DNA of 39,639 bases. It comes from an uncultured bacterium. GTDB taxonomy: Bacteria > Spirochaetota > Spirochaetia > B11-G9. A program made the position numbers and the translations under genes. A model generated the notes under the pieces. It saw only the letters and a list, made by a program, of their open reading frames with translations, was not told the origin of the DNA and searched no databases. How positions within the stretch are numbered: the stretch's first letter is position 1; the number at the start of each line of letters is the position of its first letter. Where the stretch lies: contig CBDVAD010000001.1 in NCBI GenBank assembly GCA_965371875.1, positions 1-39,639 of the forward strand, in the 5' to 3' direction. This document shows positions 2,534-39,639 of the stretch, in pieces.

Positions 2534-2598
2534 ATCTTAGTAAAGCTGACCGCCCAGGCAATCAAAGAATCTTTGGGTTTACAGCAGAATACAGACAC

Positions 2599-2709: not shown

Positions 2710-2725
2710 CCACCATACGGAACAT

Positions 2726-15391: not shown

Positions 15392-15457
15392 TGAAGCAGG
15401 AAATCAAATTTGCCTGTTATAGTAGTTATGGGGATTATAAAATTTATTTTATTTTTT
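15392..15457 (+). repeat. 66-nt 5' module, copy B (in front of and into the prepilin peptidase gene)
   Basis: See 14061-14126. Both copies place TATAGT/TGTAGT 6 nt before the ATG. Confidence 0.75.
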
Positions 15458-23552: not shown

Positions 23553-24030
23553 AATTAAGTTTAGAGCCAATATTAAGACCAGTATTAAAAAACTAAAAGC
23601 CTTGATAAAGAATGAAGATGGATGGACTTTCGTTGAAACTCTGATAGTTATCTCTATTGTTTTAATTCTTACAAGTACTGTGGGTTTCATGGCTTTCAGG
23701 TATGTTGGCAAAGCCAAAATAGTTGCGGCCAAAACGCAGATAGAAAATCTTTCCATGGCTTTAGATACCTATTTCATGGATAACATGCGCTACCCTATAG
23801 AGGAACAGGGACTTGGAGCCTTATGGGAGAAACCCATTCTTGAACCGATACCAAAGAATTGGGACGGACCATATCTTAAAAAGAATCTTGCGAAGGACCC
23901 CTGGGAAAATGATTATGAATATGTAGTACCAGGGCCCAATGGATTACCTTATGGAATAAGCTCTCCTGGAGCAGATGGAACACCAGGAGGTGAAGGAGAT
24001 GCAAGGGATATCACTTCCTGGGAGAATTAA
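23545..24030 (+). CDS. gspG: Type II secretion major pseudopilin GspG
   Basis: Prepilin N-terminus '...NEDG|WTFVETLIVISIVLIL' (Glu at +5). T2SS-G signature 'AKTQIENLSMALDTYFMDNMRYP' and 'DPWENDYEYVVPGPNG...SPGADGTPGGEGDARDITSW'. Confidence 0.93.
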   Translation: MTEIKFRANIKTSIKKLKALIKNEDGWTFVETLIVISIVLILTSTVGFMAFRYVGKAKIVAAKTQIENLSMALDTYFMDNMRYPIEEQGLGALWEKPILEPIPKNWDGPYLKKNLAKDPWENDYEYVVPGPNGLPYGISSPGADGTPGGEGDARDITSWEN

Positions 24031-24031
24031 A

Positions 24032-24232
24032 TTGAAAGGGTCTAAATCGACGGAGGGTTTTTTTCTTCTGGATGCTGTTATATCCCTTCTTGTTGTCTCA
24101 GTTGTTATTATTGAAATTCTTGTATTTGCCCTCAATGCCGGAGGTTCCGCGGTAAAAACGAATGTAAAAATTACCAGATCTATTGAAACAAGAAACAGGA
24201 GTGCTGTTGAACTTTTTGAAGATCAGAACTAA
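24032..24232 (+). CDS. Small minor-pseudopilin-like protein (tentative)
   Basis: A TTG start after GGAGA gives 'LKGSKSTEG|FFLLDAVISLLVVSVVIIEIL' (Asp at +5). Track ORF 23975-24232 begins inside gspG. Confidence 0.4.
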   Translation: MKGSKSTEGFFLLDAVISLLVVSVVIIEILVFALNAGGSAVKTNVKITRSIETRNRSAVELFEDQN

Positions 24233-24716
24233 CGAAGGGTTTACTCTGATAGAAACACTTATTGCCATTACTCTTGTTTCTCTGATAGGTATTCCTGTTT
24301 TTATGGTTTTTTCTGATACAGTTAGTTTTACCGGAAATGTTAAGGACCTTAATCGCTGGAATAAAGAGCTGATTCAGCTGGAAAGGGTTCTTAGAAAATC
24401 AGTTGGGGAAGTCGGGATTCCCTTCTGGATAAGTGATATTGAACTTACTGAGGAAGCTGGTAGTATGAGTGTTCCATACTGGAATGGGCAAGCAGACTCC
24501 TTTCTTGAAATGAAAACCCTGGATACAGCCTTTAAGATAACTACACCTGAGGGGAGTACAGTATTCAATGGATATGATGGAGTAGAGTTTGATATCCTTA
24601 AAGACATTGGGTCACGGACTATTGGATTATCCATCAATGTGAAAAAAACAAAAAGAGAAGATGTAAAATTCCAATGTACTTTCGGGGCCATTGGAAGAGA
24701 AGTATTTAATGAGTGA
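24183..24716 (+). CDS. Minor pseudopilin (GspH/I/J class not resolvable)
   Basis: Classic prepilin cleavage/methylation motif 'NEG|FTLIETLIAITLVSLIG'. A TTG at 24216 would give a conventional 8-aa leader (MKIRTNEG). Confidence 0.75.
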   Translation: MKQETGVLLNFLKIRTNEGFTLIETLIAITLVSLIGIPVFMVFSDTVSFTGNVKDLNRWNKELIQLERVLRKSVGEVGIPFWISDIELTEEAGSMSVPYWNGQADSFLEMKTLDTAFKITTPEGSTVFNGYDGVEFDILKDIGSRTIGLSINVKKTKREDVKFQCTFGAIGREVFNE

Positions 24717-24758
24717 GGTGCGAGACTCGCAGCACCGAACTAAAGTGAAAAATAGAAG

Positions 24759-25799
24759 ATGAAAGATACCGAGAACGGTTTTTCGAGTATACAGACAATG
24801 CTTATCCTCCTGATTTTGAGCCTCTCGGTATTAGGACTGAGTACAGGGATATCCCTGACTCAGAAATATTATCAAAAAAATGAAGCAATTCAGCAGGATC
24901 TCATTCTTCTAAAGGCAGAGGTTGCAGCAGTAATCAAACAGCTTGAAAGTGATCCCACACCGGAATCTGATTCCCCGACTGATCCTGTCTGGAGTTATAT
25001 CGAAGGCCAGTCGACTAAATATGAGTATATAAAGTTGACTGATGTATCAAGCAGAATCAATCCGAACTGGGTAAGATCTGTATTTTTTGAAAGAACTGAT
25101 CTTAAGAAATTTCTGTTAAACGGTGTTTCTTCTGATATGTTTAAAAACAACAGAGAGAAGGTCGGATACATAATTGATATAGAGTCCGGCTATTCTGAAT
25201 TGATAGATCCTGAAGCACTGGAAACCTTATTTACTCCTTACAGCTACCTGAACGTAAATACTGCCTATGAGTATGTGTTAAAGGACATGTATGAGCTTGT
25301 AACAGAGGATTCGGGTGGGGCGATAAGCTTTCATACTTTCATAGCAGGAGCATTGGCTGAAAAGCATATTATTACGGAAGAAGAACTTCTAAACGCTGCC
25401 GGAAGTGATTATGAAGCTATCTATCCTATAATAAGTACACTACCCGAAATGAATGTTCATTTTATTCCTGAGTTTATCCTGGAACAGGTGCTGGCCTATC
25501 CATATGGTGGAGAGGTTATTGATAATAACAGTTCAATTTACAATACTCTCCTTACCTTAAGAATGGGTAATGAAATTACTATGGTTGATTTGCAGGGTCT
25601 TATGGAAACCGAAGGCTTGCAGGAACGTGTATTTCATCATCTTGGAACAAAGACCTGGTTCTGGAAAGTGGAGATTGCTACTGAGCGTACTAAAATAGAG
25701 GCAATCATTATTTGTTTGCCTTTAACTGGAAGCAACTCTACAGAGAGTGGAATGAAACCGGATTACAGTTATAGGCTGTATGCTTTTAATATAAAATAG
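24759..25799 (+). CDS. GspK-like large minor pseudopilin (tentative)
   Basis: 346 aa. The N-terminus 'TENG|FSSIQTMLILLILSLSVLG' has a prepilin-like hydrophobic helix without an acidic +5 residue, as in GspK. It is last in the pseudopilin block. Confidence 0.45.
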   Translation: MKDTENGFSSIQTMLILLILSLSVLGLSTGISLTQKYYQKNEAIQQDLILLKAEVAAVIKQLESDPTPESDSPTDPVWSYIEGQSTKYEYIKLTDVSSRINPNWVRSVFFERTDLKKFLLNGVSSDMFKNNREKVGYIIDIESGYSELIDPEALETLFTPYSYLNVNTAYEYVLKDMYELVTEDSGGAISFHTFIAGALAEKHIITEEELLNAAGSDYEAIYPIISTLPEMNVHFIPEFILEQVLAYPYGGEVIDNNSSIYNTLLTLRMGNEITMVDLQGLMETEGLQERVFHHLGTKTWFWKVEIATERTKIEAIIICLPLTGSNSTESGMKPDYSYRLYAFNIK

Positions 25800-25897: not shown

Positions 25898-25914
25898 AAA
25901 GTGTGTGTGGTGGT

Positions 25915-26600: not shown

Positions 26601-26669
26601 TCTGAAGCAGCATCGTAAATTCACCAGTACTACAGTTATAAGAACCAAAAAAATTATTACTAGTGTGGT
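26601..26669 (+). repeat. 69-nt direct repeat, right copy
   Basis: See 25829-25897. Confidence 0.9.
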
Positions 26670-27423
26670 GTTGGTGAAAAAGTTTATTTTTATAACAGTA
26701 TGTTTGCTTATATTTATTGTTATTACTTTGACGATAGATCTCTTTCGAACAATAACCGGTATTAATGAAGTTAATAATGAACTGGAAAGTATTTCCAGAC
26801 AAAATGAAAATTTAGTTACTCTGGTTCAAGAAAATCAACAGAATACCAAAGAAACAATATCAGGTTTCAGTTTACATCTGAATGAAAAAATCACAGAACT
26901 CTCCAAAGATGCTGAGAAGCGTAACAGGAAATTTGATATTGCTTTTTTTGATTTAAGAAAATCAAGTCGTATGGAAATAGACGAAGTGAAGAGTCTAATA
27001 ACATTTTATATAGAGGAAGTGAAGAATAAAAAAACAGCTGAGAATTTACTCTTTCTCAATACTCTTGTGGAATCGGATATTCAGATTCAACAGCTTCTAA
27101 ATGAAGGTTCAGTCAAGTATAGAGATGAAGATTTCACAGCAGCTGTTAAAGTATATAGAAAGATTCTCGATATAGATCCATTTAATGTAGAAGCTATCTG
27201 TTATTTTAATGCTTCCCTCTATTACCAGAACCCAGGGGACGAAAGTAACTTTTCCGGGATAAAAAATGATCTGATTCTTCTTCTTAAAGAGAATGTTCTT
27301 ACAAAAGATGAAGAGCTAACTGTTCTAAATGTTCTTGTCGGTATTAAAAGAGAAGAGGGCAATGCTGATTCTTTAATACAATACCAGGATTTCCTGCAGA
27401 AGCTTGCGGAAGACCGTAAATGA
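26665..27423 (+). CDS. Bitopic protein: N-terminal TM helix, coiled-coil region, C-terminal TPR-like repeats
   Basis: 'KKFIFITVCLLIFIVITLTIDLF' is the TM helix. 'EDFTAAVKVYRKILDIDPFNVEAICYFNASLYYQNPGD' is TPR-like. The start codon (GTG/TTG cluster) is uncertain. Confidence 0.6.
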   Translation: MVLVKKFIFITVCLLIFIVITLTIDLFRTITGINEVNNELESISRQNENLVTLVQENQQNTKETISGFSLHLNEKITELSKDAEKRNRKFDIAFFDLRKSSRMEIDEVKSLITFYIEEVKNKKTAENLLFLNTLVESDIQIQQLLNEGSVKYRDEDFTAAVKVYRKILDIDPFNVEAICYFNASLYYQNPGDESNFSGIKNDLILLLKENVLTKDEELTVLNVLVGIKREEGNADSLIQYQDFLQKLAEDRK

Positions 27424-28436
27424 GAATAAAAAAGCTTCTAATATCTATAATATATATTTCCCTCACAATTTCAATTTGGAGTTTCGATTTATGTCTGGCA
27501 AACCTTTATCAGTATAGTCCTGATGGAAGTATTTTTACAGAAAATGATATTGAAAGGGATCTGTTTAAGAGTTTAAGAGAAACGGATAAAGAAGGTGTAC
27601 TCTCTATTTCAAGAACAAATAGCAATAATATTCCTAAATCGATTCTAGATACAGCAGCTTTAAGTGAATCTGAAAATGTTAACTTTATTCTCTATGGTTT
27701 TATAAAAGTAACAGAAAACTACTATGACTTTGAAGTAAAGCTCTATGACCGGGAGGCCGGTGAAATTAAAAATATTTTTTATGCAAAGAATACAACTTCA
27801 AGTTACAGGGACCTGGTTCATACAATGTCTTCGAGAATTATCGCTTACTTTTACAAAACTCTTGGTATAACAAAAAGGAAATCAGAGGAGGAAAAAGAAC
27901 ATGGTGTTATCGATATTGAAACGGGACTTGGATACTGGATGCCTTTTGATCCCTGGGCAGAATCGCTTATGGGACTTGTGTCAGTTCATTTAAGCAGCAG
28001 CCTGACACCAATAAACCCTCTTTTAAAATGGGATGTTTTTACTTTTGCATTGGGATACGGCATTGGGCTGGACTATTCATTGGGAATGAACAAAGAGGGT
28101 TTTGAAAGCTACTCTCTTCATTTACTTAGGATGGGATTTCCTGTTTCCTTATCTGCAACATGGCATTACAGGAATAAAATTGTCCTGCAGATTGCACCTG
28201 AACTACAGCTGGACATACTCTTTCAGGACCGTCTGTATGGAAGTGTTGTGGGTGAAAAAAGCGCCGTGTTTTCTTTGTCCACCTCCATTGGGTATGAATA
28301 TCTATTTACTGATAAACGGCTCTCATTAGGGTTTGCAACCCGTCTTCATACGGCTTTTTATAACAATATACTTTTTTCGATAGAACCATCTTTTTATTGC
28401 AGATACAGATTTAATCCAATGGATAAAGGAGATTAG
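27420..28436 (+). CDS. Hypothetical envelope protein with signal peptide and beta-barrel-like C-terminal half
   Basis: ATGA overlap with the upstream gene. N-terminal hydrophobic signal. The C-terminal ~180 aa have alternating-pattern strands rich in G/Y/F/L and end ...SFYCRYRF-NPMDKGD. Confidence 0.55.
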   Translation: MRIKKLLISIIYISLTISIWSFDLCLANLYQYSPDGSIFTENDIERDLFKSLRETDKEGVLSISRTNSNNIPKSILDTAALSESENVNFILYGFIKVTENYYDFEVKLYDREAGEIKNIFYAKNTTSSYRDLVHTMSSRIIAYFYKTLGITKRKSEEEKEHGVIDIETGLGYWMPFDPWAESLMGLVSVHLSSSLTPINPLLKWDVFTFALGYGIGLDYSLGMNKEGFESYSLHLLRMGFPVSLSATWHYRNKIVLQIAPELQLDILFQDRLYGSVVGEKSAVFSLSTSIGYEYLFTDKRLSLGFATRLHTAFYNNILFSIEPSFYCRYRFNPMDKGD

Positions 28437-28437
28437 G

Positions 28438-29211
28438 ATGAAGGTTCAATTTTTAGTAATTTTTCTATTTTCACTCTTGTTGTTGTCATGTTCTGAAGGG
28501 CTGTTAAGCGATATGCTCCGTGTTAATACAGATCCTGTTGTCGAGGGACCGTCTGTAGTCTCTTTCGAAAAAGAAGAAACAATAGAAATAAGCTGGAACT
28601 CAGATCCTGGAGCTGATGAATATATTCTCTACAGGGCAGAAGATACTCTTGTCCCGGTTTATGAAATCCTCTATCAGGGAACGAGCCTTTCTCTAACAGA
28701 TACAGATATTACAGGTGAACATCGTTATCTCTATACTCTGGGCAAAGTACGGGGAACAGTGTTGTTTGGGCCTTCTGATCCAAAACTTGGTGTGGGAAGT
28801 AATGTAATTCAGGATAATCTGGAAGGGAATAATATAAAAGAGAAGGCAACAACACTTGTATGGGATCTTGATGCAAACCTATATTATTACCGTTCCAATG
28901 ATAGTGAGGAAATAGAAGATTTTGATTGGTATTCAATTACAGTTCCTCCCAGAAGAAAAGCCATGATTGTTGTCACTCAAGATGGATTAGGTTCCGGAGC
29001 TGACTCCTGGATGAATTATTATCTTGAAGGCCATGTGTCCGAAACAATAATAAACAGTAATGCGATACCAATAGAGAACTACTCTTATAATGAGAAAACC
29101 TTTTACTTTTTAATCTCACCAAATTCTTCAGAGTTTATTGGTGATCCTACTCTTGGCGGTGGTGGTCTTATAAATTACAGGGTGTCTTTAAATTCAATTC
29201 AAAGTCTTTAA
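28438..29211 (+). CDS. Lipoprotein with FN3-like and PPC (pre-peptidase C-terminal)-like modules
   Basis: Lipobox LLLSC. 'IEISWNSDPGADEYILYRAED' is FN3-like. 'DFDWYSITVPPRRKAMIVV' resembles the D-x-D-W-Y motif of PPC domains. Confidence 0.55.
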   Translation: MKVQFLVIFLFSLLLLSCSEGLLSDMLRVNTDPVVEGPSVVSFEKEETIEISWNSDPGADEYILYRAEDTLVPVYEILYQGTSLSLTDTDITGEHRYLYTLGKVRGTVLFGPSDPKLGVGSNVIQDNLEGNNIKEKATTLVWDLDANLYYYRSNDSEEIEDFDWYSITVPPRRKAMIVVTQDGLGSGADSWMNYYLEGHVSETIINSNAIPIENYSYNEKTFYFLISPNSSEFIGDPTLGGGGLINYRVSLNSIQSL

Positions 29212-29222
29212 GCAGGTAGATA

Positions 29223-29882
29223 ATGATGAAAAATAAAAAGTTAATTCGAATAAATACTTCAATTACAATATTGCTAATTATTTTTACAATCGGATGTTCT
29301 GTTACTCCCATACCGTCTGCAGTTAAAGATCATGAGGATGTGACTGTAATAGAAGAGAACTCCTCTCTTTTTGTAGAGGATGGTGTTACAGGGGTAATTG
29401 AGTTTGCAACAAATGATACAAAGTACTCAGAACAATTCGGGTACACATTGTGGAGTCAGGAAGGTTTAGTGTCTGACCCTTTTACTAATCTGAATGTGAC
29501 ACTTTCCAAACTCAGCGGGAACGATGTGGCAGGATATGGTGTAGTATTCGGCAGTCATGATGATACGATGCTGGTTGTACTCATAAATACAAAGAAAGAG
29601 TTCATAATCGGAGAATTAACCGGCAATCTGTTTACAGTATTACAATTCTGGGATGACGCAGCCAGTTTGAAATCCGGTTATAACCAGATAAATATTATTG
29701 ATATTACCTACGATTCGGGAACAGGCGAATTCGATTTGAGTTTTAATGGTGTCCTGGTATCTACATTCCGGGATGATGATGCGCCCTTTCATACACAGGG
29801 TAAAAATGGATATATCGTTGTTATTTCTCCACTGGATGATTTTCCAAACATTCCGGTTTCCATAACATTTAAAAATAATTAG
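29223..29882 (+). CDS. Lipoprotein, possible concanavalin/LamG-like beta-sandwich
   Basis: Lipobox FTIGC. 'VAGYGVVFGSHDDTMLVVLINTKKEFIIGEL...INIIDITYDSGTGEFDLSFNGVLV'. The fold assignment is a guess. Confidence 0.5.
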   Translation: MMKNKKLIRINTSITILLIIFTIGCSVTPIPSAVKDHEDVTVIEENSSLFVEDGVTGVIEFATNDTKYSEQFGYTLWSQEGLVSDPFTNLNVTLSKLSGNDVAGYGVVFGSHDDTMLVVLINTKKEFIIGELTGNLFTVLQFWDDAASLKSGYNQINIIDITYDSGTGEFDLSFNGVLVSTFRDDDAPFHTQGKNGYIVVISPLDDFPNIPVSITFKNN

Positions 29883-29895
29883 GAGCCTATAATTA

Positions 29896-32800
29896 ATGAA
29901 TAATATAAGAAAAAATATATCTTTTACAATTCTGGTTCTTTTTATAATGTCAATTGTACCCTTTCCCCTTCTTGCAGATAATGCAGAAGTCTATAAAGAT
30001 ATCTTTACCCATAAGACTCCGGCAGAGAGATATATTCCTGTTGCAGTGGTAGCATCACCCTCTGAAAACGAGGTTCCTGAATCTGCTGCAGAGACTCAGA
30101 CTCTTGCGTCTCTACAGAAGCAAAGACCTGTCTCTGATTCTCCTGTAGAGTTCTATTCCCAAAAAATAACACCGGATGTAGAAAGTATTCTTGTATACGA
30201 TGGGATAAAATTAGAGATTCCTGCCGGAGCGGTAGATAAAGAGGTAACCATAGAGATAATAAAGCTTAAATCTGCCCCTCGTGTTAACGAAACAATAAGA
30301 AATGTAACAACAGGTGCAGAATCTTATCGTTTTTTACCGGACGGTATTCATTTTAAAAAAAATATCAAAATTTCAATACCCTTTAGTAAGGCTCTTCTCG
30401 AATCGGAAACAGCCCTTTCCAATCTGTTTACATATTTTTTTGATGAAAACAGCAATACCTGGGAACGCCTTCCTCGGATAGAAATCGATAAAGAGAAAAC
30501 TGTTGTTGTCAGTTTGACAGACCATTTTACAGATATGATAAACGGAACCCTTAAAATGCCGGAAAGTCCCGGCCCGGTTAACTTCGATATTAACAGCATA
30601 AAAAACCTGGAAGCTGCTAACCCGTCTTCCGGAGTAATGAACCTGAAAGGTTTTACACCAGATTCACAGGGAAGCGCATCTTTTCAGATAGCTCTGAATC
30701 TGCCGCAAGGACTGGGAAGCGCATATCCGAACCTTTCTTTAAGCTACAACAGCGACAGTCCAAACAGCTGGATGGGAAGGGGCTTTGATATTTCCGTTCC
30801 ATCTATTACAACGGATACAAAATTTGGTCTTCCTGACTACGACGATAGTGACACCTATATTCTCGGTGGTGAAGAACTTGTTCTTATATCCGGTTCCGGT
30901 TTCCCAAAATCCTATCGTCCACGTATAGAGAAAGAGTTTAAAAGAATAATAAGAAAACTCGAAGGTGGAGTTGATTACTGGGAAGTAACGGACAAAAATG
31001 GAAGAGTTCAGACATTCGGTACAGAGGAAGGATGGATTGGCCCTGATAGGAATAACCATACAAAAACCTATACCTGGTATTTAACAAAAGAGACAGACAC
31101 CAATGGAAACTTTGTAAGTTATATCTATGATTATGACAGTGATAATAAATATACCTATTTAAAAGAGATCCATTATTCAGGAAATAATAATGTCAGTACC
31201 AGTAATTCCGGTCCCTATAAGGTTGTTTTTAATACGTCTGAATCCAGACCAGACAGAAGAATAGATGCAAGGGGTACCTTTGTATCCAAACTGGTAAGAA
31301 GACTCGACAGTGTTGATATCTATTACAATACTGAAGTTATTCGTACCTATGAGTTTACATATGAACAAAATGAGTTTGGACAAACGGTATTAAATAGTTT
31401 TGCTGAGCTTGATGGCAGTGGGAATGAGTTTTATGGCTATGGGTTTGATTATAATAAATTATCTATCCATGATGCCGGAACTGGTATTATTGCCTATGAT
31501 GGGTTTGGAGATGAAACAATTGAATGGGGAGCTGTTTCCGGCCCCACTTTCCCAGGACTCAACCAGACTCGTACCTTCGGAATTGGCGCCAGTTTATATT
31601 TAGGAGTATCTGTCGATATTTTTAAAAGAATAAGATGGTTTAAATGGGGGTGGAGACGTCTTTTTTCATTGGGAGTAAGCGGAGGGGTTAATTATTCAAA
31701 TACTATTACAAAATCAACTTTGTTGGATATTAATGGAGATAACCTGCCTGATGCAGTATGGAAAGATGGCGGAGTTTTAAGAGGATATCAGAATACAGGA
31801 AATGGATTTGATACAAGTACTGACAATGATATTTCTCTTCCTGGTTTACCTGGGCTTTTAAACAGAAATAGTCAGTTGGGATACAATCTGGGGCTTTCAG
31901 TAACTGCTGGAGTGCTCAGCGGTTCTTTATCTATGCAGAACAACTGGATGAAGAGTAAGAGTTCGTTTAATGACATAGATGGTGATGGACGAATAGATTA
32001 TCTTATTGCAGACAGCAGTAAATATTACAGAAACACAACAGACAGTTTTACTCCGACAGACTATGGGACATATGTAAGTCTGACACAATCTGAGAATATA
32101 AACGAGGATGATTATCTTCGTACATATTACAGTCAGGAACCGCTTCGGAAATGGAAGGCATATACAGGTGGGAGAATAGAGATCAGTCAATCCATGAACC
32201 TTCTGGACAGTAGTCTTGTTTCTGAAGATGGTGTTGCAGCAATAACATATCCGGATGGTGGATATCCTGAATTCAGTATTCATTTGAGTTCAGATCAGTC
32301 TGAGGGTTCAGATACCCGTTCCTACAATATTGAAGAAGGGGACGAGTTATTTTTTCATATGGATGCCGGAATTGATTCAAGGGAAGATGATATTAATTGG
32401 GACATTAATATAGCCTACACTGATATAAACTATTTTGAAAAAATGGATGATCCCTCAATTATAAAACTTAAAGAACTTTATTATAACTCTCTGCCCGATG
32501 ACAGACTTGATAGATTTTATAATTCAGCTTATGTGCAATATGAGGATGATCCGCCCAAAAAGAGATGGGAATATACTCTTAAATCCGACTGGAGAAACTA
32601 TCTGAATAGTACTTCACTTGCAGCTGTTATTGAATATGGACTATTTGTTCCAGCAAGAATATCGGAAGATATATTTACCGGAATTTTTAATAGAGCGAGT
32701 GATACTGAAATTATTTATACAGATAATAATAATAATTCTGATGATAAAATTATCCCTGGAGAGAAGGCTGCTCTTATAGATTCTTTTTTGTACAGACCCG

Positions 32801-35800
32801 AATTTAGAGATTTTATCCGGCTGAACAATGGTGCTGATAATGTAGTAAGAAACTATCTTCTTTTGGAATCGAGCCTGTCTCAGAGACATAGCCTGTTTTA
32901 TTATACTGACTTTTCAGGAAGCAGTGTTTTGCCTGAAGAGTCCGGCGGAGCCAGAAGTTTTCTTAAATCGGCTCCTTTGATAAGTATTGAACCTAAAATA
33001 GATATAACTGAAGATAACATGACCCCTGGAGCTGAACTTTACAATGGGGAGATTCTTCTTGATAGGATTTATAATGAGACAGGAGATGAAGTTGTTGCGA
33101 CTTTAAGTCTGGTTCCTGACAATGGTGCTCTGCAGCTTGTTAGTACAGGCAGTCAGGGTTCGGGTGTTATTATTGGATCTGTGGTAACTGAATCTGCCGG
33201 TGGAATAAGTGCTTCTTTTTTACGGAACGGAATAAAACACAGCTATAGTTTAAGCAATCCTGAAAGTGTTCTAACCGGTTTGCCCTCGGATATATATGAT
33301 AGTGAAGTTCTTGATGCAGTTACATCCGGTTATGACTTTGTATATTTCCCTTCTCATACCAGTTTGAGTATTTCCGATTATAACACGATTTATGGAACAA
33401 TAGATGTCCAGGAGGATAAGAACTTTTTTCAGACAGTTTATGATCGATATCCGGAAGTATCCGATATCGAAGAGTACATACTTAAAGATCCAATGTTGCC
33501 GGAAGAGCTTGATCATCTGAATGTTATACTGCCTGGAGTTAATTTACCTGCAAATTATACCTTGCTGCCTCTTTTAGAGTATGCATCTGTCTACAATTCT
33601 GCATCTACTAAAGATAAAGTCTTCCTTGAAGAAATTTACTCACGATCCCCTGAAATACCTCCCATAGAAAGATATGATCTTGTATCAGGTATAAGCATCC
33701 CGGATGAAACACGTCTTGTCCTTATTTTTGATACTTTAAGTGATGACGGGGTTTCCATACATGATAATCCATTGTTTTTATCCGGAAACACAAACAGTGT
33801 CGGAATTATTGCTTTAAGTGAAGCTGAATATACAGATTATTTTGAAGAAAAGGCTGATATTCAAAGTCTTTTTAACGAAGTTGTAAATGATGATTCAGAT
33901 ACCTTTTTTATTCTAAAAAATAATATTACAGAAGCAGAAAAGAATGTATTTGAGACTGCATGCCGTCAATATTTAAGGGATGAAATTGAATTTCCTTATT
34001 ATGAATACAATGAGGCTGAAGGGCTGTTTACCATAAGATCCGGATTAAACAGTACTGAGTTAACTGAGATATCCACTCTCTTTTCAGGACTGGATTTAAG
34101 TGTATTTACAACTCTTAACAGAAGCTTACGGTATTATTCCAATGCAGTGCTCCCTGTTGTTTATGAAAGTGCAGCTGCAGTTTCAAGTGTGGATAATCCT
34201 GTTCCGGAAGGAACCGGCCCCCTGAACCATACAAATCCAGGTACTGTCAGCATTCCATATTTTGATAACCTTGGGAGAAGTTCATATTTAATTAAGTATA
34301 TTCATAACTATTATTCAGAATCTGACTATAGTTCAGAAAATCTAATAAATTATCCTGAAAATATATATAACGAGAGTGCTCTGATTGGTACTGAACTTAT
34401 TGAAAATACTCCTGAGGACAGAATACCTGATAGTTTTGAGATATTCAGCGGAGGAGTAGCCGGTTGGTATTACGGTGTCTGGACTGGCTATCATGGTCTT
34501 TTCCAAAATGAAAAGCTCCACGCCATTCCTCCTGAGAACGGTCCGGGAGAAGTAATCCGTCCGAAATACTTTACTCCTATGAAACAGAATATAAAAGATA
34601 ATAATGATCCTATTAAAACTTCCGTGGGGAGAGATCAGATTTTTATACTGGATAAGTGGAGCCTTATTATGGATGCAAGTTCGTATACGGAATCTGACTT
34701 CACTGAAGAGGGAGAGCCGGTAAGTGTAAGCTACAACTTTGCACCTGCAATAAAAGGAAACCTGCTGCACGCTGACAGAAATGGAGGAGATACATATTTT
34801 AATGTTCCGCGAGGGAGTAAACCCATGGAGGGTGGAAAGATAGGATATTTAAGTTCTGGAAAATCTACTTCAAGAGATATAAAAGGAAGTCTGGATTTTG
34901 GTGTTGGTTCTTTAAGTTTATCACTAAGTGAAAATGAAGGAACATCATGGCAGTACCAGAATGTAATGGATATAAACGGTGATAGGTATCCTGATATAAT
35001 CTCCTATACTTCAGATAAAGATGGTTCAGGTAGTTTTTCAGTTGTAGAAGGAAATGGAACCGGATTTGGTTCTGTAGTTGATTATTCAAGTCCCGTCAAG
35101 CATCTTTCGTATAGTGAGAATCTGACCTACGGTTTCGGAGCTTCTCCCGGCAGTCATTTCCCTGGGATTGAACCGGCAATGTCACCTTCCGGCAGGGTGA
35201 AATCGACAGGAATTGGAACCCCTGACAGTGGATCGGGAGGGGGATTTGGATTCTCCGGTTTTAACGGAACAGCGGGTGTTTCCTTTAATACCCAGGGATT
35301 TACTGATGTCACAGGAGACGGACTTCCTGACCATATTCAGAGGAGTGGATCAGGGGTGTACAATGTAGCTATTAATAAGGGTGATAATAGTTTTGCAGAT
35401 CCAGCTGTTTCTTTTGGCAGCGGGATAGATGAGGATCTTTATGAAGGTACTGTGATTGCTTCCGGTTTATCAAAAACTGCAAAGGGTATAAGCTTTAGTA
35501 ATTCCGGTAGTCTTGGTACTGGTGTATCAGTATCGATAGCAAGTGTAGGTTTTAATGCCTCTGCTAATCGAACTCTGTCGCAGCTTATGGATATTAATGG
35601 CGATGGGTTGTCCGATCAGGTAGTTAAAAAACCTGCTGAGGATTTCTTCCGGGTACGATTTAATATGGGGGATGAGTTTGCTGATGATGAAACAAGAATA
35701 TACCGTCCGGATTGGGATCCTGATGGATTTCCAGATATAACAAGTGCCCTTGAATCTATTATTGGTGAAAATTCTGGTTCTTTTAGCAACCTGGATTTAC

Positions 35801-38800
35801 CTTTAGTGGGAAAACTTGATCTTACCCCTTCTGCTCTTCCTTCCAATGCAGAAGATAATCCATTTTTTTCCATTATCAATCCTCTTGGAATTGATGATGC
35901 CATAAGTTATACAAACGGTATATCAATCAATCTGGGAGCCAGTCTGCATTTAAATTTTAAAGCCTACCTGGTATTACTCAGGTTTGGGTTTGATGTAATT
36001 CCAGGTATAAACGGGTCTTATGCTGTGAGTACAACCAGCCTTTCCATGAAGGATATTAATGGAGATGGTCTTCCAGATCATGTTCTTAAAAGAACTGGAA
36101 GTGATGAGTTAAAGATAAAAATCAATAGTATGGGAATGACAGGCCTCCTTAATAAAATAACCATGCCCACAGGTGGAAACATGGACCTCGAATACGGCCG
36201 AAGGGGAAACACTGTCGACATGCCTCAGAACCGATATGTCCTTACTAAAGTAACAAAGAACGACGGTTATCAGGATGATCCGACTATGGCAGGAGAACAC
36301 AGTTACACGGAAACCTTTGACTACAAAGATGGATACTATGACAGAGGAGAGAGGAAATTCTACGGTTTTCATGAAGTATCAGTAACCAAAGGAGACGGAT
36401 CTGTTACAACAACAATCTATAATAATGATAATTACTATACAAAAGGACTTGTTTCTTCAACAGTAATAGAAAATGAAAACGGAATAACTTTCCTTGAACA
36501 GGAGAACAGCTACAGCCTGAGAAGTATTGGAACCTATACTGACGGAGACGTAAAGTACCCATACCTTTCTACGGAAATAAGCAGAACCTTTGATGTATCA
36601 GATTCTGATGTAATCGAAACAGAAAAACAATACTTTTATGACAGCCTGGGGAATGTTATTCGTATGGAAGATACAGGAATCTACTCAGATCCGGATGATG
36701 ATATAACATTGAATATAATCTATTCAGATGACCATAACAGTAATTATTTAATGAGTCTTCCGACAAGTCTGACAGTAAAAGATTCGACCGGTGATATAAT
36801 AAGAAAAAGAGAAGGAACTTACGACGGAAACGGAAATCTTACTGCCTTAAAAAGCTATTACAACGATTATGACTTCTCTGAATATACCTTCGGATATGAT
36901 GCTAATTATGGAAACTTAAGCTCTGTAGAAGATCCCCTTGGTTATAGAAAAGAATATACTTATGATAATGAAGTTCACCGATATGTAACAGAGATAGATA
37001 CTTCAAGTATTTATGGAGGAGATTCATATACCTCCACTCTAAGCTATGACTACAGATATGGCGTTGAAACATCCCAAACCGATAGTAACGGAAACACCCT
37101 GTCTAAGGAATATGATAATTTTGGACGGCTTAAAACCATAATAAGTCCATACGATACAGGAACGGTTAAAGCAGTGGAATACTCATACCTTACAGATACA
37201 TTTCCCTGGAAGGCACTGACAAAAAACAAGATAAGTTTCGATGCAGCAGACGTAAGTACCATGGACACTTATGTAATAATTGACGGCCTAAACAGAATAA
37301 TAAGCACAGCCAAAGAGGGAGAAGTCTACAATGAAAGTGGAAACCTGCATGGCTGGAACAAAAGCGGATATGTAAGCTATGACAACAAAGCACGACCAGT
37401 TGAAGAGGGCCAGACAGTCTTCGAAGAAACAAGCACTTCACCTGAAGTAGAGAAGACAGCATTACGTCCAACACTAAAAACATACGACGCACTGGACAGA
37501 ATACTAACCATAACCTTTCCTGACGATTCTTTAATAACAAAGATCTATTCTGTAGAGGGAAACATAACAAAAGAAACAGTTACAGATCCCCTTGGTAACA
37601 TAACGGAAACTTATAAAGACATTAGAGGAAATATTGTAAAATTAGAGAAAAAGGACTCAATAGGAACACTCCTGACAGAATCCTTTTACAGCTATAATGT
37701 CCTGGGGGAACTATTAAAAGTGCTGGATGCAAAAGGAAGTGAAGTTACCTTTACCTACGACATTCTTGGAAGAAGACTGACATTGCAAAGTCCGGAAACA
37801 GGATTAACAGAGTTCGAGTATGACAAAGCAGACCACCTTATAAGAAAGGTGGATGCAAACCTTAGAAATGACGGAGCATCCATAAACTACATCTACGGTA
37901 CCCTTGGAAGAATAGAAAAGATAGACTATCCATTTATGACCGATACAAGCTACACTTATGGTGCACAGGGAGATGACTACAACAGGGCAGGCAGAATAGT
38001 AAGAATAACGGACGAATCCGGAAGCACAGAAAACTACTATGGAGAACTCGGAGAAACAACCAGTGTAACAAAAACAATAGGCCGGCTTACACCTTTAGCA
38101 GATGACAAGAGTGCCAGCTTTAACTACACCTTCGACTACCAGGGAAGAATGGAAGCCATAACCTACCCCGATGGAGAGGTTGTAAGTTACGAGTACAACA
38201 GAGGCGGAGAAGTAGAAAAAGTAAGCAGTGTCCACAACGGTCTTTCTACAACCTACATAGAAAACATAGGTTACGACGAATACGGCCAGAGAGCATACAT
38301 AAAATATGGAAACGGAATAGAGACAAAGTATACCTACGATGAGGACCGGCGCTGGCTTAACAATATAGAAACCAAAAGTACTCTTAATACCTTACAGGAC
38401 ATTGATTACACCTTTGACAAAACAGGTAATATCCTGGCAATAGTAAACATATCGGGAAGGTATACAACGAACCAGAACTATGAGTATGACGGACTATATC
38501 AGCTGACAAAGGGAGAAGGATACTTCGAAGACAGGGAGTACGGCTTTACTAGTGGAACCTCCAGGTACATCCAGAACTTCAGCTATGACAGCACAGGAAA
38601 TATCCTCTCAAAGACAAGCAGTAACATGGTTACCCCTTCCGGCGGAGTAAGTGCTCTTAACTACAATTACAGCTATACATATTATACTGATAAACCAAAA
38701 CAGGCAGAAATAATTGGAAATTTATGGTATCTTTATGATGGTAACGGGAATATAATAGAAGAACGTGCAGGCGGCCATAGTACTGAAGGTATACAGGGCA

Positions 38801-39639
38801 GTGGAACAATTACAAAAAACGGGAAAATTACAGAAATGAACAGAGGCATAGCCCTTACAAGAAATACAGAAGAAGTAGATAACGTCTATAAACGAACCTA
38901 TGTCTGGGATGAAGAGAACCGTCTTAAGACAACAATAGACTCACAAACAGTAGAATACCGCTACGACAGCACAGGTGAACGGACAAACAAGATGTCTGAT
39001 GATGGAGGAGAGACTCTCTACTTCAACAGCATGTGGCTGGCTGCAGAAGACAGTTACGACTTCAGGCAGAGTAAAAATATCTATCTTGGAGAAACAAGAA
39101 TAGCTACACGGCTTAACATGGAAAGCGATCCTTCCACAGGTTATGAAGCGGTGAATACCTACTACTATCATCCGGATCATCTGGGCAGCAGTAATATTGT
39201 AACAACTCCGGATGGAGACGTGTTTGAGCATATTGAATACACCCCATATGGTGAGACATGGATTGAAAAGAGTGATGATATGTTTGATATGCTGCCCTAT
39301 AAATTTACCGCAAAGGAACTTGATGATGAGACGGGGCTCTACTACTACGGAGCGAGGTATCTGAATCCGAGGACTTCAAGGTGGATCAGTTCTGATCCGG
39401 CAATGGATGGAATTAATTGGTATGCATATGCAAATAATAATCCAGTGAAGTATATCGATCCTACTGGTTTAGAACCCATAATAGCAGATGATATTAATGG
39501 GCAACCAATATTAGAAAGAAAATATAAACCTGCTGGAGTCGATAATAAAATAATCAGAGAAAAATATGGTTATGGGAATGAATTTGATTCTACCAGCACA
39601 AAAGAATATATGACCATGGAAAATGGTCAAACTTTTCCT
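29896..39639 (+). CDS. Giant secreted TcB/TcC-like RHS polymorphic toxin, 3'-partial (>3,248 aa): signal peptide + SpvB-like + FG-GAP + RHS/YD shell + RHS core + start of the C-terminal toxin module
   Basis: It is not in the ORF track. Manual translation of every line from 29881 to 39639 in the frame of ATG 29896 (AGGAG at 29881-29885) found no stop. The last complete codon ends exactly at 39639. Motifs are listed in the findings. Confidence 0.9.
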   Translation, partial: MNNIRKNISFTILVLFIMSIVPFPLLADNAEVYKDIFTHKTPAERYIPVAVVASPSENEVPESAAETQTLASLQKQRPVSDSPVEFYSQKITPDVESILVYDGIKLEIPAGAVDKEVTIEIIKLKSAPRVNETIRNVTTGAESYRFLPDGIHFKKNIKISIPFSKALLESETALSNLFTYFFDENSNTWERLPRIEIDKEKTVVVSLTDHFTDMINGTLKMPESPGPVNFDINSIKNLEAANPSSGVMNLKGFTPDSQGSASFQIALNLPQGLGSAYPNLSLSYNSDSPNSWMGRGFDISVPSITTDTKFGLPDYDDSDTYILGGEELVLISGSGFPKSYRPRIEKEFKRIIRKLEGGVDYWEVTDKNGRVQTFGTEEGWIGPDRNNHTKTYTWYLTKETDTNGNFVSYIYDYDSDNKYTYLKEIHYSGNNNVSTSNSGPYKVVFNTSESRPDRRIDARGTFVSKLVRRLDSVDIYYNTEVIRTYEFTYEQNEFGQTVLNSFAELDGSGNEFYGYGFDYNKLSIHDAGTGIIAYDGFGDETIEWGAVSGPTFPGLNQTRTFGIGASLYLGVSVDIFKRIRWFKWGWRRLFSLGVSGGVNYSNTITKSTLLDINGDNLPDAVWKDGGVLRGYQNTGNGFDTSTDNDISLPGLPGLLNRNSQLGYNLGLSVTAGVLSGSLSMQNNWMKSKSSFNDIDGDGRIDYLIADSSKYYRNTTDSFTPTDYGTYVSLTQSENINEDDYLRTYYSQEPLRKWKAYTGGRIEISQSMNLLDSSLVSEDGVAAITYPDGGYPEFSIHLSSDQSEGSDTRSYNIEEGDELFFHMDAGIDSREDDINWDINIAYTDINYFEKMDDPSIIKLKELYYNSLPDDRLDRFYNSAYVQYEDDPPKKRWEYTLKSDWRNYLNSTSLAAVIEYGLFVPARISEDIFTGIFNRASDTEIIYTDNNNNSDDKIIPGEKAALIDSFLYRPEFRDFIRLNNGADNVVRNYLLLESSLSQRHSLFYYTDFSGSSVLPEESGGARSFLKSAPLISIEPKIDITEDNMTPGAELYNGEILLDRIYNETGDEVVATLSLVPDNGALQLVSTGSQGSGVIIGSVVTESAGGISASFLRNGIKHSYSLSNPESVLTGLPSDIYDSEVLDAVTSGYDFVYFPSHTSLSISDYNTIYGTIDVQEDKNFFQTVYDRYPEVSDIEEYILKDPMLPEELDHLNVILPGVNLPANYTLLPLLEYASVYNSASTKDKVFLEEIYSRSPEIPPIERYDLVSGISIPDETRLVLIFDTLSDDGVSIHDNPLFLSGNTNSVGIIALSEAEYTDYFEEKADIQSLFNEVVNDDSDTFFILKNNITEAEKNVFETACRQYLRDEIEFPYYEYNEAEGLFTIRSGLNSTELTEISTLFSGLDLSVFTTLNRSLRYYSNAVLPVVYESAAAVSSVDNPVPEGTGPLNHTNPGTVSIPYFDNLGRSSYLIKYIHNYYSESDYSSENLINYPENIYNESALIGTELIENTPEDRIPDSFEIFSGGVAGWYYGVWTGYHGLFQNEKLHAIPPENGPGEVIRPKYFTPMKQNIKDNNDPIKTSVGRDQIFILDKWSLIMDASSYTESDFTEEGEPVSVSYNFAPAIKGNLLHADRNGGDTYFNVPRGSKPMEGGKIGYLSSGKSTSRDIKGSLDFGVGSLSLSLSENEGTSWQYQNVMDINGDRYPDIISYTSDKDGSGSFSVVEGNGTGFGSVVDYSSPVKHLSYSENLTYGFGASPGSHFPGIEPAMSPSGRVKSTGIGTPDSGSGGGFGFSGFNGTAGVSFNTQGFTDVTGDGLPDHIQRSGSGVYNVAINKGDNSFADPAVSFGSGIDEDLYEGTVIASGLSKTAKGISFSNSGSLGTGVSVSIASVGFNASANRTLSQLMDINGDGLSDQVVKKPAEDFFRVRFNMGDEFADDETRIYRPDWDPDGFPDITSALESIIGENSGSFSNLDLPLVGKLDLTPSALPSNAEDNPFFSIINPLGIDDAISYTNGISINLGASLHLNFKAYLVLLRFGFDVIPGINGSYAVSTTSLSMKDINGDGLPDHVLKRTGSDELKIKINSMGMTGLLNKITMPTGGNMDLEYGRRGNTVDMPQNRYVLTKVTKNDGYQDDPTMAGEHSYTETFDYKDGYYDRGERKFYGFHEVSVTKGDGSVTTTIYNNDNYYTKGLVSSTVIENENGITFLEQENSYSLRSIGTYTDGDVKYPYLSTEISRTFDVSDSDVIETEKQYFYDSLGNVIRMEDTGIYSDPDDDITLNIIYSDDHNSNYLMSLPTSLTVKDSTGDIIRKREGTYDGNGNLTALKSYYNDYDFSEYTFGYDANYGNLSSVEDPLGYRKEYTYDNEVHRYVTEIDTSSIYGGDSYTSTLSYDYRYGVETSQTDSNGNTLSKEYDNFGRLKTIISPYDTGTVKAVEYSYLTDTFPWKALTKNKISFDAADVSTMDTYVIIDGLNRIISTAKEGEVYNESGNLHGWNKSGYVSYDNKARPVEEGQTVFEETSTSPEVEKTALRPTLKTYDALDRILTITFPDDSLITKIYSVEGNITKETVTDPLGNITETYKDIRGNIVKLEKKDSIGTLLTESFYSYNVLGELLKVLDAKGSEVTFTYDILGRRLTLQSPETGLTEFEYDKADHLIRKVDANLRNDGASINYIYGTLGRIEKIDYPFMTDTSYTYGAQGDDYNRAGRIVRITDESGSTENYYGELGETTSVTKTIGRLTPLADDKSASFNYTFDYQGRMEAITYPDGEVVSYEYNRGGEVEKVSSVHNGLSTTYIENIGYDEYGQRAYIKYGNGIETKYTYDEDRRWLNNIETKSTLNTLQDIDYTFDKTGNILAIVNISGRYTTNQNYEYDGLYQLTKGEGYFEDREYGFTSGTSRYIQNFSYDSTGNILSKTSSNMVTPSGGVSALNYNYSYTYYTDKPKQAEIIGNLWYLYDGNGNIIEERAGGHSTEGIQGSGTITKNGKITEMNRGIALTRNTEEVDNVYKRTYVWDEENRLKTTIDSQTVEYRYDSTGERTNKMSDDGGETLYFNSMWLAAEDSYDFRQSKNIYLGETRIATRLNMESDPSTGYEAVNTYYYHPDHLGSSNIVTTPDGDVFEHIEYTPYGETWIEKSDDMFDMLPYKFTAKELDDETGLYYYGARYLNPRTSRWISSDPAMDGINWYAYANNNPVKYIDPTGLEPIIADDINGQPILERKYKPAGVDNKIIREKYGYGNEFDSTSTKEYMTMENGQTFP

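Follow-up and report, generated by a model that had tools for sequence, protein, structure and literature searches.

A giant ZU5-SpvB-RHS protein with features of a secreted polymorphic toxin, encoded after a type II secretion operon in a spirochaete

Introduction

How very large toxins leave the cell that makes them, and how RHS cocoons gain access to their targets without a TcA translocator or a type VI secretion system (T6SS), are poorly understood. The stretch of spirochaete DNA analysed here (39,639 nt, hereafter the window) raises both questions, as it ends in an open frame of more than three thousand codons that follows a type II secretion system (T2SS) operon. What is this giant protein, and do the genes before it have anything to do with its export? 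The original prediction called it a TcB/TcC-type fusion toxin. We think that the locus as a whole is probably best explained by a polymorphic RHS toxin that is secreted, belongs to the signal peptide-ZU5-SpvB-FG-GAP propeller-RHS class, acts on bacteria and has its export linked to the T2SS.

Results

An intact frame that runs off the end of the window

29896..39639, plus strand: giant ORF, 3,248 codons, no stop (translation)

Machine translation of positions 29896-39639 gave 3,248 codons and no stop. This agrees with the original prediction that the frame is open from the ATG at 29896 to the last base, and each peptide quoted in that prediction was found in its place. The GC content of ~38% gives an estimated stop frequency of ~0.066 per codon, and by our own estimate the chance of a stop-free frame of 3,248 codons is therefore ~1e-96. 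A reading as a pseudogene was rejected, as the frame is intact. The ORF lister gave no plus-strand ORF past 29882; the giant ORF is missing from its track because ORFs that run off an end are not listed there.

Searches with the giant protein found 667 relatives. The best 120 are almost all 3,100-3,500 aa long and come mostly from spirochaetes. The closest relative among the matches listed is 60% identical, and the best matches among GTDB representatives are fragments (74% and 66% identical). By sequence comparison, then, the giant protein, truncated at its C-terminus, is typical of a mostly spirochaetal family of ~3,200-3,500 aa. Because family members are 3,200-3,500 aa long and have tails of ~150-270 aa after the core, we judge that the window end cuts the ORF about 100-210 aa before the expected C-terminus. 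The toxin domain of the giant ORF and any immunity gene fall beyond the window, and exact 50-nt searches with the 3' end of the ORF gave no matches in metagenome or viral contigs.

A predicted signal peptide and a ZU5 domain at the N-terminus

29896..29976, plus strand: Sec-type signal peptide, aa 1-27, predicted cleavage between LLA and DN (hydropathy heuristic)
30151..30555, plus strand: ZU5-fold putative autoproteolytic domain, ~aa 86-220 (AF2 model and Foldseek)
30523..30531, plus strand: H-F-T, aa 210-212, candidate autocleavage site between HF and T (family alignment)

The strongest hydrophobic stretch of the giant protein, and the only strong one, is aa 8-26 (KD 2.44). A signal-peptide-like N-terminus is also present in 85 of 121 family members, so that the Sec signal of the original prediction is in keeping with the hydropathy heuristic, which is the sole method behind both results. 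Past the predicted signal peptide, a hydropathy scan of the giant protein gave no hydrophobic or pore-forming segment to account for passage into a target cell, and on this ground a TcA-like pore encoded in cis was rejected.

The signal peptide is followed by a region (~aa 86-220) that AF2 models at pLDDT >90. Foldseek matches this stretch to ankyrin ZU5 (E ~1e-5, prob 1.0, TM 0.63-0.66) and also to GAIN, NLRP1 FIIND and UNC5b; the Pfam ZU5 match is weak (E 0.024). Within it, the HFT motif sits at the turn joining the last two strands of the model and is near-invariant among 121 aligned family members (H in 110, F in 111, T in 109). By predicted fold, the giant protein contains a ZU5 domain, and the motif suggests that this domain cuts itself between HF and T. 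The ZU5 domain was absent from the original prediction.

A cocoon with a large insert

30667..31182, plus strand: SpvB/TcaC N-terminal domain, aa 258-429 (Pfam PF03534, E 6e-24)
31693..32100, plus strand: FG-GAP repeats 1-2, motifs at aa 611 and 693 (motif; all-beta in AF2)
32101..34470, plus strand: insert of ~790 aa between FG-GAP repeats 2 and 3 (AF2, pLDDT 81)
34471..36195, plus strand: FG-GAP repeats 3-6, motifs at aa 1692, 1804, 1899 and 2053 (motif; AF2)
36016..36453, plus strand: TcdB_toxin_midN, aa 2041-2186 (Pfam PF12256, E 7e-22)
36454..39237, plus strand: RHS/YD-repeat shell (RHS_repeat, E 8e-26; YD_repeat_2x, E 1e-8)
39238..39471, plus strand: Rhs-associated core, aa 3115-3192, ending PVKYIDPTGL (TIGR03696, E 1e-21)
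39472..39639, plus strand: first 56 aa of a putative polymorphic C-terminal toxin domain (no Pfam match)

The SpvB/TcdB N-terminal signature, the YD repeats and the RHS core that had been named from motifs are all borne out by profile searches, in which SpvB, TcdB_midN, RHS-repeat and Rhs-core matches were significant. The SpvB region aligns to residues 28-210 of TcdB2, aa 2733-3201 align to TccC3, and the best PDB sequence matches of the giant protein are TcdB2-TccC3 fusions (E 7e-35). The TcdB-mid-like region of the original prediction holds for midN and not for midC (PF12255), which had no match in the giant protein at E <= 0.01 and is not among the precomputed Pfams in the best 120 of the 667 relatives.

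Six D-x-[NDT]-G-D-x-x-x-D motifs had also been proposed, and they start exactly at 31726, 31972, 34969, 35305, 35590 and 36052; the FG-GAP_3 profile scores 25.2 bits, slightly below the Pfam cut-off of 26.9. By motif position, repeats 2 and 3 are ~1,000 aa apart. The motif spacing and the predicted secondary structure suggest that the split repeats could nevertheless pack as one propeller.

The insert of ~790-1,000 aa among the FG-GAP repeats was missed in the original prediction. It is modelled as beta-sandwich, alpha/beta and helical modules and is strongly acidic (net charge -83), and its central part (~aa 850-1500) is variable in the family conservation profile. A search with the insert against 1.84 billion representatives returned 26 matches, all of them collinear pieces of the family; judged by this search, the central part is without relatives outside the ZU5-SpvB-RHS family. 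The insert had no Pfam matches and no PDB fold matches at E<1e-3. In a viral library it matches phage host-specificity, tail-fibre and C1q modules weakly and locally, and the PDB fold search gave weak CBM-like and jelly-roll-like matches. Because of the insert, the distance from SpvB to the core is longer here (~2,850 aa) than in TcdB2-TccC3 (~2,050 aa), as estimated from alignment coordinates. This distance was used as the measure; the short FG-GAP anchors are unmappable onto distant relatives.

The Rhs core is intact, and its PxxxxDPxGL motif is present, which suggests cutting after DPTGL by an Rhs aspartyl autoprotease. The 56-aa tail beyond it has no BLAST homologue among the best 120 of the 667 relatives and no Pfam match.

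Tails of the relatives and the genes after them

The tails of the relatives after the core (~150-270 aa) are hypervariable, and the polymorphic tails of ~170-230 aa that were compared are mutually unrelated. Pfams recorded in the best 120 of the 667 relatives include M23, Amidase_2, NlpC/P60, VanY/M15_4, AHH and Tox-HNH-like. Four peptidoglycan-hydrolase tails were examined (loci L002, L003, L082 and L084), and in each case the next ORF carries a lipoprotein-type signal. In L083, where the tail is glycine-rich, a small membrane protein comes next, and after other tails the ORFs are cytoplasmic. In nine relatives a small same-strand ORF starts 0-27 nt after the toxin gene or overlaps its stop, and orphan cassettes of an RHS tip and a small ORF lie downstream in L002, L005, L083 and L085.

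We propose bacterial targets because the peptidoglycan-hydrolase tails of the relatives precede lipoprotein immunity-like genes. More generally, the relatives' tails (peptidoglycan hydrolases and nucleases), together with immunity-like genes, point to bacterial targets, and on the reading of these tails the most likely victims of the giant toxin are competing bacteria, not insects. The putatively antibacterial type of the family's tails had gone unnoticed in the original prediction.

A T2SS operon and four envelope-protein genes upstream

15410..25799, plus strand: type II secretion operon (Pfam)
15410-15901, plus strand: prepilin peptidase (Pfam Peptidase_A24)
15892-18075, plus strand: secretin (Pfam Secretin)
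18066-19568, plus strand: GspE (Pfam T2SSE, E 3e-125)
19568-20770, plus strand: GspF (Pfam T2SSF)
23545-24030, plus strand: GspG (Pfam T2SSG)
to 25799, plus strand: further pseudopilin-like genes (Pfam N_methyl matches in the T2SS operon)
26665..27423, plus strand: accessory gene A, N-terminal membrane anchor and TPR-like region
27420..28436, plus strand: accessory gene B, 338-aa signal-peptide protein without known family
28438..29211, plus strand: accessory gene C, lipoprotein with Fn3-like domain (invariant lipobox Cys)
29223..29882, plus strand: accessory gene D, lipoprotein, 13 nt before the giant ORF (invariant lipobox Cys)

The window holds a same-strand array in which the T2SS operon is followed by four envelope-protein genes and then, at the end, by the toxin gene. 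Genes A to D and the toxin gene are closely packed: the first two overlap by 4 nt, and the next three junctions measure 1, 11 and 13 nt. Promoter and terminator scans were uninformative, with promoter-like counts at the level of shuffled sequence and no plus-strand terminator-like site in the gaps from 25.8 to 29.9 kb. A RAYT-like transposase gene lies between the T2SS genes and the A-D cassette. With its predicted signal peptide and an adjoining, complete-looking T2SS, the giant protein is a possible T2SS substrate. The original prediction drew no connection between the toxin gene and the adjoining T2SS operon and genes A-D.

The A-D cassette recurs in most of the spirochaete loci examined. 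Gene D is the most widely conserved partner, found in 12 spirochaete loci including Treponema pedis. Orthologues of gene A occur in matching position in L001, L004, L006-8, L010 and L011, and TPR proteins take its position in L003 and L083-85. The family profile of gene C matches the Fn3-like structure 3mpc (E 2.6e-4); proteins B and D had no Pfam or PDB-profile matches.

The order T2SS-cassette-toxin is also found in L001, L004 and L083, with the T2SS genes themselves in the same order, and in L018 a closely packed T2SS array leads on the same strand straight into the toxin gene. Among related loci with a flank of 8 kb or more, T2SS homologues are upstream in 13 of 48 versus downstream in 1 of 34, and the linkage extends from Spirochaetota to Beta- and Gammaproteobacteria. 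The loci counted are phylogenetically non-independent, and the ZU5 motif pattern was the means by which most were recovered. With chance modelled generously, at 6 GspE-like genes per 4 Mb, the linkage has P ~2e-13. Within the spirochaete clade, 7 of 11 loci are without a T2SS within 10 kb.

Discussion

The cocoon parts that the giant protein has in common with TcB and TcC support that part of the original prediction; the ZU5 domain, the insert, the tails and the T2SS context are not those of a classical Tc toxin. The label 'TcB/TcC fusion toxin' understates the architecture and suggests the wrong biology. By domain architecture, the class is one already catalogued as the 'TcdB/TcaC-type' polymorphic toxins (Zhang, de Souza, Anantharaman, Iyer & Aravind 2012, Biol Direct 7:18; PMC3482391), and it is catalogued and annotated but unstudied.

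The features suggest a route from producer to target. Sec export would carry the toxin into the periplasm, where the SpvB, propeller and RHS parts would close as a cocoon around the C-terminal toxin and the Rhs aspartyl protease would cut after DPTGL, leaving the toxin loose inside. The ZU5 domain would cut itself between HF and T and, by analogy with GAIN and FIIND, the N-terminal piece would stay bound non-covalently as a releasable tether. The adjoining T2SS and the envelope proteins A-D could then export or display the particle at the outer membrane, and the insert that splits the FG-GAP repeats, which is acidic and evolves fast, could bind the target surface. Finally, the payload would act on competing bacteria while a downstream immunity protein shields the producer. 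No TcA translocator would be involved.

We postulate, tentatively and with considerable doubt, that family members are cocoon toxins which need no TcA or other partner to act, and that the co-encoded T2SS (plus A-D in spirochaetes) is dedicated to exporting them or displaying them at the surface, with ZU5 as a GAIN-like tether and the insert as a built-in receptor-binding module. This would be an undescribed route by which rival bacteria receive peptidoglycan hydrolases, nucleases and pore-formers. If it is true, the ~360-kDa particle would be an unusually large T2SS substrate.

The class could be right and the T2SS adjacency incidental or regulatory, with exit by vesicles, by lysis or through A-D alone and with the T2SS serving as a general secretion system. 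The known secretin channels of T2SSs seem too small to admit a folded cocoon of ~360 kDa, which favours this explanation, as do the 7 of 11 spirochaete-clade loci without a nearby T2SS and the RAYT-like transposase gene that lies between T2SS and cassette. Complete secretion systems are, moreover, reportedly missing from treponemes with family members (PMC8049484). However, the excess of T2SS genes upstream (13/48 versus 1/34, in two phyla, P ~2e-13) and the single same-strand arrays that end in the toxin gene in L001, L004, L083 and L018 are not what an incidental neighbour would lead one to expect. An incidental T2SS is thus possible, although we lean against it.

Alternatively, the protein might be a true Tc-toxin BC subunit. 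The genome would then encode a TcA pentamer at another site, to which the subunit docks by its propeller before its payload enters eukaryotic (e.g., invertebrate) cells. Its best solved relatives are indeed TcdB2-TccC3 (E 7e-35), SpvB, TcdB_midN, FG-GAP, RHS and core are all present, and the window covers neither the downstream region nor the rest of the genome. The original prediction had seen no TcA-like partner in the window, where the largest other ORF is 727 aa, and neither the preceding 30 kb nor any of nine homologous loci (10-kb flanks) shows a TcA-sized gene. The insert of ~800-1,000 aa falls in the very FG-GAP region expected to form the TcA-docking surface, TcdB_midC was undetected, and in the family peptidoglycan-hydrolase tails are followed by lipoprotein ORFs. 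At least one Tc toxin is reportedly released by lysis that depends on a type X secretion system (T10SS; PMC10847048), in contrast to the predicted Sec signal and adjoining T2SS here. Together these points make a Tc BC subunit very unlikely. We give even less credence to a YD-repeat protein that is not toxic and serves at the surface as an adhesin or in carbohydrate binding, a reading put forward in genome papers on treponemes. Carbohydrate binding has been proposed for YD proteins such as TDE1558 (3,320 aa; PMC3747143), and the weak CBM-like and jelly-roll-like matches of the insert would fit. However, the giant protein keeps an intact Rhs core with its cleavage motif, and the family has hypervariable tails with recognised toxin Pfams, immunity-like genes and orphan cassettes; because these features define polymorphic toxins, an adhesin is disfavoured.

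Read as a secreted antibacterial toxin, the giant protein is itself a typical member of a catalogued family, and the locus and its relatives offer a concrete gene set for study: a T2SS, four envelope proteins, a putative ZU5 tether and a variable, possibly binding insert. Spirochaetes from hosts and from the environment, Treponema among them, carry the family in abundance, and it may therefore shape competition in oral, gut and sediment communities.

Comparison with known systems

The cocoons of Tc toxins (TcdB2-TccC3, PDB 4O9X/6H6E; YenB-YenC2, 4IGL) have SpvB, FG-GAP, TcdB_midN, an RHS shell and a core with DPxGL in common with the giant protein. In contrast, they require a TcA pentamer, have an uninterrupted propeller and no signal peptide or ZU5 domain, and carry eukaryote-directed payloads without immunity genes. 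The giant protein has no TcA nearby, no midC match and ~800 extra residues between SpvB and core.

T6SS Rhs effectors (Pseudomonas protegens RhsA, 7Q97; Tse5, 8CP6; Tse15) likewise form an RHS cocoon, with a C-terminal toxin whose autoproteolytic release is predicted here, and their cores match the giant protein at E 1e-14 to 1e-18. They pair an antibacterial toxin with a cognate immunity gene, and immunity-like genes are found in the relatives here. However, their N-termini are of the PAAR, clade or VgrG-binding type, and they lack a signal peptide, SpvB and a propeller. The giant protein had no match to PAAR or T6SS Pfams, and there is no VgrG gene among the annotated neighbours in the window; a T6SS effector was rejected on the lack of PAAR and T6SS genes.

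Teneurins and the mosquito SGS proteins (YD shells of bacterial origin; SGS4, 3,398 aa, PDB 9ON3) also form giant YD shells from a single chain of comparable length. Relatives of the giant protein have the TEN_YD-shell Pfam on record, and SGS4 matches its Rhs core (E 7e-11). The match is limited to the core region, whereas the insert and N-terminus are unmatched.

The ZU5, GAIN and FIIND modules of PIDD, NLRP1, adhesion GPCRs and Nup98 have the same fold and an H-F-[S/T]-type motif before the last strand. After cleavage, the halves of these proteins stay non-covalently associated. They belong to eukaryotic signalling, whereas here the module forms the N-terminus of a secreted bacterial toxin and its cleavage is putative.

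The nearest system is the TcdB/TcaC-type class itself (PMC3482391), which is described with a signal peptide, an optional N-terminal ZU5 autopeptidase, SpvB, an integrin-like beta-propeller, RHS and a variable C-terminal toxin, as in the giant protein. The lineages given include spirochaetes, the tails include peptidases and nucleases, and 'TcdB/TcaC export' is treated as a pathway of its own. The ZU5 active site is given there as a CxH thiol motif, in contrast to the conserved HFT of the family here. The passages of that paper that define the class report no linked T2SS operon, A-D cassette or FG-GAP insert, whereas all three are present in this locus.

A giant open reading frame for a TcdB/TcaC-type RHS protein

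Translation from the ATG at 29896 (+) meets no stop in 3,248 codons, and the frame is still open where the window ends. Stop codons are expected at ~0.066 per codon at ~38% GC, and the chance of such a frame is therefore ~1e-96 by our own calculation. The ORF track has no entry on the plus strand after 29882 and omits this ORF because, as its lister's own description says, ORFs running off an end go unlisted. The original prediction read the frame as a TcB/TcC-type fusion toxin, and that reading holds in part. Neither outcome that it named as refuting, an in-frame stop or a lack of significant SpvB/RHS matches, occurred. All quoted peptides and the six FG-GAP-type motifs are found precisely where claimed, and the protein matches the profiles for SpvB (E 6e-24, aa 258-429, counted from ATG 29896), TcdB_toxin_midN (E 7e-22, aa 2041-2186), RHS_repeat (E 8e-26) and the TIGR03696 Rhs core (E 1e-21, aa 3115-3192). 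FG-GAP_3 scores slightly under its cut-off, and the suggested TcdB_toxin_midC domain has no profile match in the ORF. Of the protein's 3,248 residues, only one is a cysteine.

A search of 5.8 billion proteins returned 667 relatives at E <= 1e-10. Among the best 120 of these, nearly all are 3,100-3,500 aa long, the nearest is 60% identical, and those that are named come mostly from Spirochaetota (Marispirochaeta, Treponema, Breznakiella). Named relatives are annotated as "SpvB/TcaC N-terminal domain-containing protein" or "toxin TcdB middle/N-terminal domain-containing protein". More than 100 of the best 120 keep residues 100-850 and 1500-3200, aa 850-1500 are variable, and there is no conservation beyond aa 3200. 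A census of GTDB species genomes (76 loci, recovered mostly via the motif DHFTDMIN) found the ZU5-SpvB-RHS architecture to be widespread, in Actinomycetota, Chloroflexota, Gamma- and Betaproteobacteria, Desulfobacterota and others. The solved 3,398-aa chain SGS4 (PDB 9on3_A), close to the family in length, matches in the Rhs core (E 7e-11); outside the core we saw no similarity between SGS4 and the giant protein.

ZU5 domain and the insert among the FG-GAP repeats

A weak Pfam match to ZU5 near the N-terminus (E 0.024) prompted a motif search, which found H-F-T-D-M at aa 210-214. Among 121 aligned members, H is kept in 110, F in 111 and T in 109. In an AlphaFold2 model of aa 60-260, pLDDT is >90 across the ZU5 domain and HFT sits at the turn joining the last two strands. 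Foldseek matched this model to ankyrin ZU5 (E ~1e-5, probability 1.0, TM 0.63-0.66, rmsd ~4 A), and also to autoproteolytic GAIN domains, NLRP1 FIIND and UNC5b. Cleavage occurs at HF↓S or SF↓S in PIDD, Nup98 and FIIND domains and at HL↓T in GAIN domains, and in all of these the fragments remain non-covalently attached once cleaved. We suspect that the ZU5 domain of the toxin could cut itself at HF↓T, leaving a non-covalent tether.

The first two FG-GAP motifs begin at aa 611 and 693 and the other four at aa 1692, 1804, 1899 and 2053, with a large insert between 693 and 1692. SpvB and the Rhs core lie 2,850 aa apart in the window's protein, against ~2,050 aa, estimated from alignment coordinates, in TcdB2-TccC3, the best solved relatives; the median distance is 2,785 aa in the best 120 of the 667 relatives (mostly spirochaete), and the distance is ~2,370-2,450 aa in non-spirochaete relatives. 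A structure model of aa 590-1760 (pLDDT 81, pTM 0.66) predicts beta-rich ends and, in the middle, beta-sandwich, alpha/beta and helical modules. Nothing in the PDB matches this model under E 1e-3. Its weak local matches are to jelly-roll or CBM-type domains in the PDB and, in a viral library, to phage host-specificity J, tail-fibre, C1q-domain and receptor-binding proteins (E down to 4e-5). Among 1.84 billion representative proteins, only 26 match the variable core (aa 850-1500), all 26 being collinear pieces of the same family. The insert (790 aa) is strongly acidic, with a net charge of -83, and contains no hydrophobic membrane-type segment; the only one in the whole protein is the predicted signal peptide. 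We postulate that the variable insert binds the target.

Polymorphic tails and the likely target

The Rhs core ends in an intact PVKYIDPTGL↓E, matching the canonical autocleavage motif. In relatives, the tails after the core are 170-230 aa long and unrelated to one another, and the 56 tail residues in the window match nothing in Pfam or among the 120 relatives. The giant gene is therefore cut off by the window ~100-210 aa before its expected end. Precomputed Pfam domains of relatives include Peptidase_M23, Amidase_2, NlpC/P60, VanY/M15_4, AHH and a Tox-HNH-type domain. Where the tail is a peptidoglycan hydrolase, the next ORF carries a lipoprotein-type signal in all four loci examined (L002, L003, L082, L084); in L083 a small membrane protein comes after a glycine-rich tail, and cytoplasmic ORFs come after other tails. 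In four homologous loci, orphan RHS C-terminal fragments lie downstream of the full-length gene, every one with a small ORF behind it, and look like displaced toxin/immunity cassettes:

L002, 24980-28471
L005, 27257-29522
L083, 20617-30074
L085, 20849-23532

Ntox35 occurs in L005, and NADase_transloc proteins lie nearby in L004 and L083.

Polymorphic tails with immunity-like neighbours are, according to PMC3482391, the standard signature of antibacterial polymorphic toxin/immunity systems. This pattern argues against an insecticidal Tc role. There is no TcA-sized gene in nine homologous loci or in the window, where we agree that a TcA-like translocator partner is absent. We suspect that the toxin acts on competing bacteria. 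It would be exported by Sec, its cocoon would fold and cleave itself at DPTGL↓E, and the payload, having no TcA-like pore, would need some other way across the target envelope.

Upstream genes and linkage to a T2SS operon

The genes before the toxin, all on the plus strand, are as follows:

14078-15376 (+), 432-aa ORF heading the T2SS operon, no Pfam matches
15410-25799 (+), T2SS operon: Peptidase_A24, Secretin, T2SSE (E 3e-125), T2SSF, T2SSG, N-methyl pseudopilin
25903-26472 (+), RAYT-like (REP-associated tyrosine transposase) ORF with HUH motif, between the T2SS genes and gene A
26665-29882 (+), four tightly spaced accessory genes:
gene A (+, first), membrane-anchored TPR-like protein
gene B (+), 338-aa signal-peptide protein (~340 aa across loci)
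gene C (+), lipoprotein with Fn3-like domain (~260 aa across loci)
gene D (+, last, stopping 13 nt short of the giant ORF), lipoprotein (~220 aa across loci)

The RAYT-like ORF matches its NCBIfam model (E 1e-15, 57.9 bits) under the curated cut-off of 80 bits, and is missing from the equivalent place in L001, the closest syntenic locus. The first residues of the 432-aa ORF (MPVVVVMRTIKFTLFF) are very similar to those of the prepilin peptidase ORF that follows it (MPVIVVMGIIKFILFF). Elsewhere in the window, 1479-2426 (-) encodes an Rpn-family recombination-promoting nuclease or putative transposase (TIGR01784 "T_den_put_tspse", 51.9 bits versus a cut-off of 52.1).

The A-D cassette precedes the toxin gene in most spirochaete loci (the window, L001, L003, L004, L006-L008, L010, L011, L022 and L083-L085) and, by tblastn, was found in spirochaete loci only. 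Neither protein B nor protein D has a relative in Pfam or among PDB profiles. Eleven spirochaete-clade loci have good flanks. Of these, the window, L001, L004 (Breznakiella homolactica) and L083 share the order T2SS, cassette, toxin, whereas L003, L010, L084 and L085 have the cassette but no T2SS within 10 kb. L005 and L082 have only one small ORF upstream (D-like by tblastn in L005, 237 aa in L082), and L002 has an unrelated 311-aa ORF.

Among 48 loci with at least 8 kb of upstream flank, drawn from the homologous loci examined first and the census, GspE homologues, alone or together with those of GspF, secretin or GspG, lie upstream in 13 (11 on the same strand), and downstream in only 1 of 34. 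By our assignment of phyla from record titles, they occur in none of the 15 loci from Actinomycetota and Chloroflexota versus 13 of the 33 others. Because these loci lack phylogenetic independence, the nominal P of ~2e-13 under a generous chance model is indicative only. The toxin gene of Noviherbaspirillum (L018) comes right after a dense same-strand array with GspE and secretin homologues among its genes, and the L018 and L025 proteins have SpvB, midN and RHS matches, as in the window. Beta- and gammaproteobacterial toxins that adjoin T2SS genes are those of L018, L020, L024, L025, L044, L048, L049, L052, L053, L064 and L067. In the six measurable proteobacterial loci ~800 aa stand ahead of SpvB, far more than in spirochaete forms, and in L025 this region includes an F5/8 type C domain.

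The adjacent T2SS and proteins A-D may export or display the toxin; a particle of ~360 kDa would have to get through the secretin.

Comparison with known systems

Treponemes have been reported to be without complete secretion systems (PMC8049484), and a literature search of incomplete coverage found no paper tying this toxin class to a secretin or T2SS operon. Treponeme genome papers touch on such proteins in passing, e.g., TDE1558, of 3,320 aa (PMC3747143), and Song et al. 2021, who surveyed Tc toxins, say nothing of spirochaetes. Zhang et al. 2012 (PMC3482391) define "TcdB/TcaC-type" polymorphic toxins as having a signal peptide, SpvB, an integrin-like propeller, RHS repeats and often an N-terminal ZU5, and include spirochaetes among the lineages and peptidases and nucleases among the tails. 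Since that class was already defined, the window's protein belongs to a known kind, computationally described and experimentally unstudied, and three features of the family are apparently undescribed: its T2SS linkage, the A-D cassette and the insert that splits the FG-GAP repeats.
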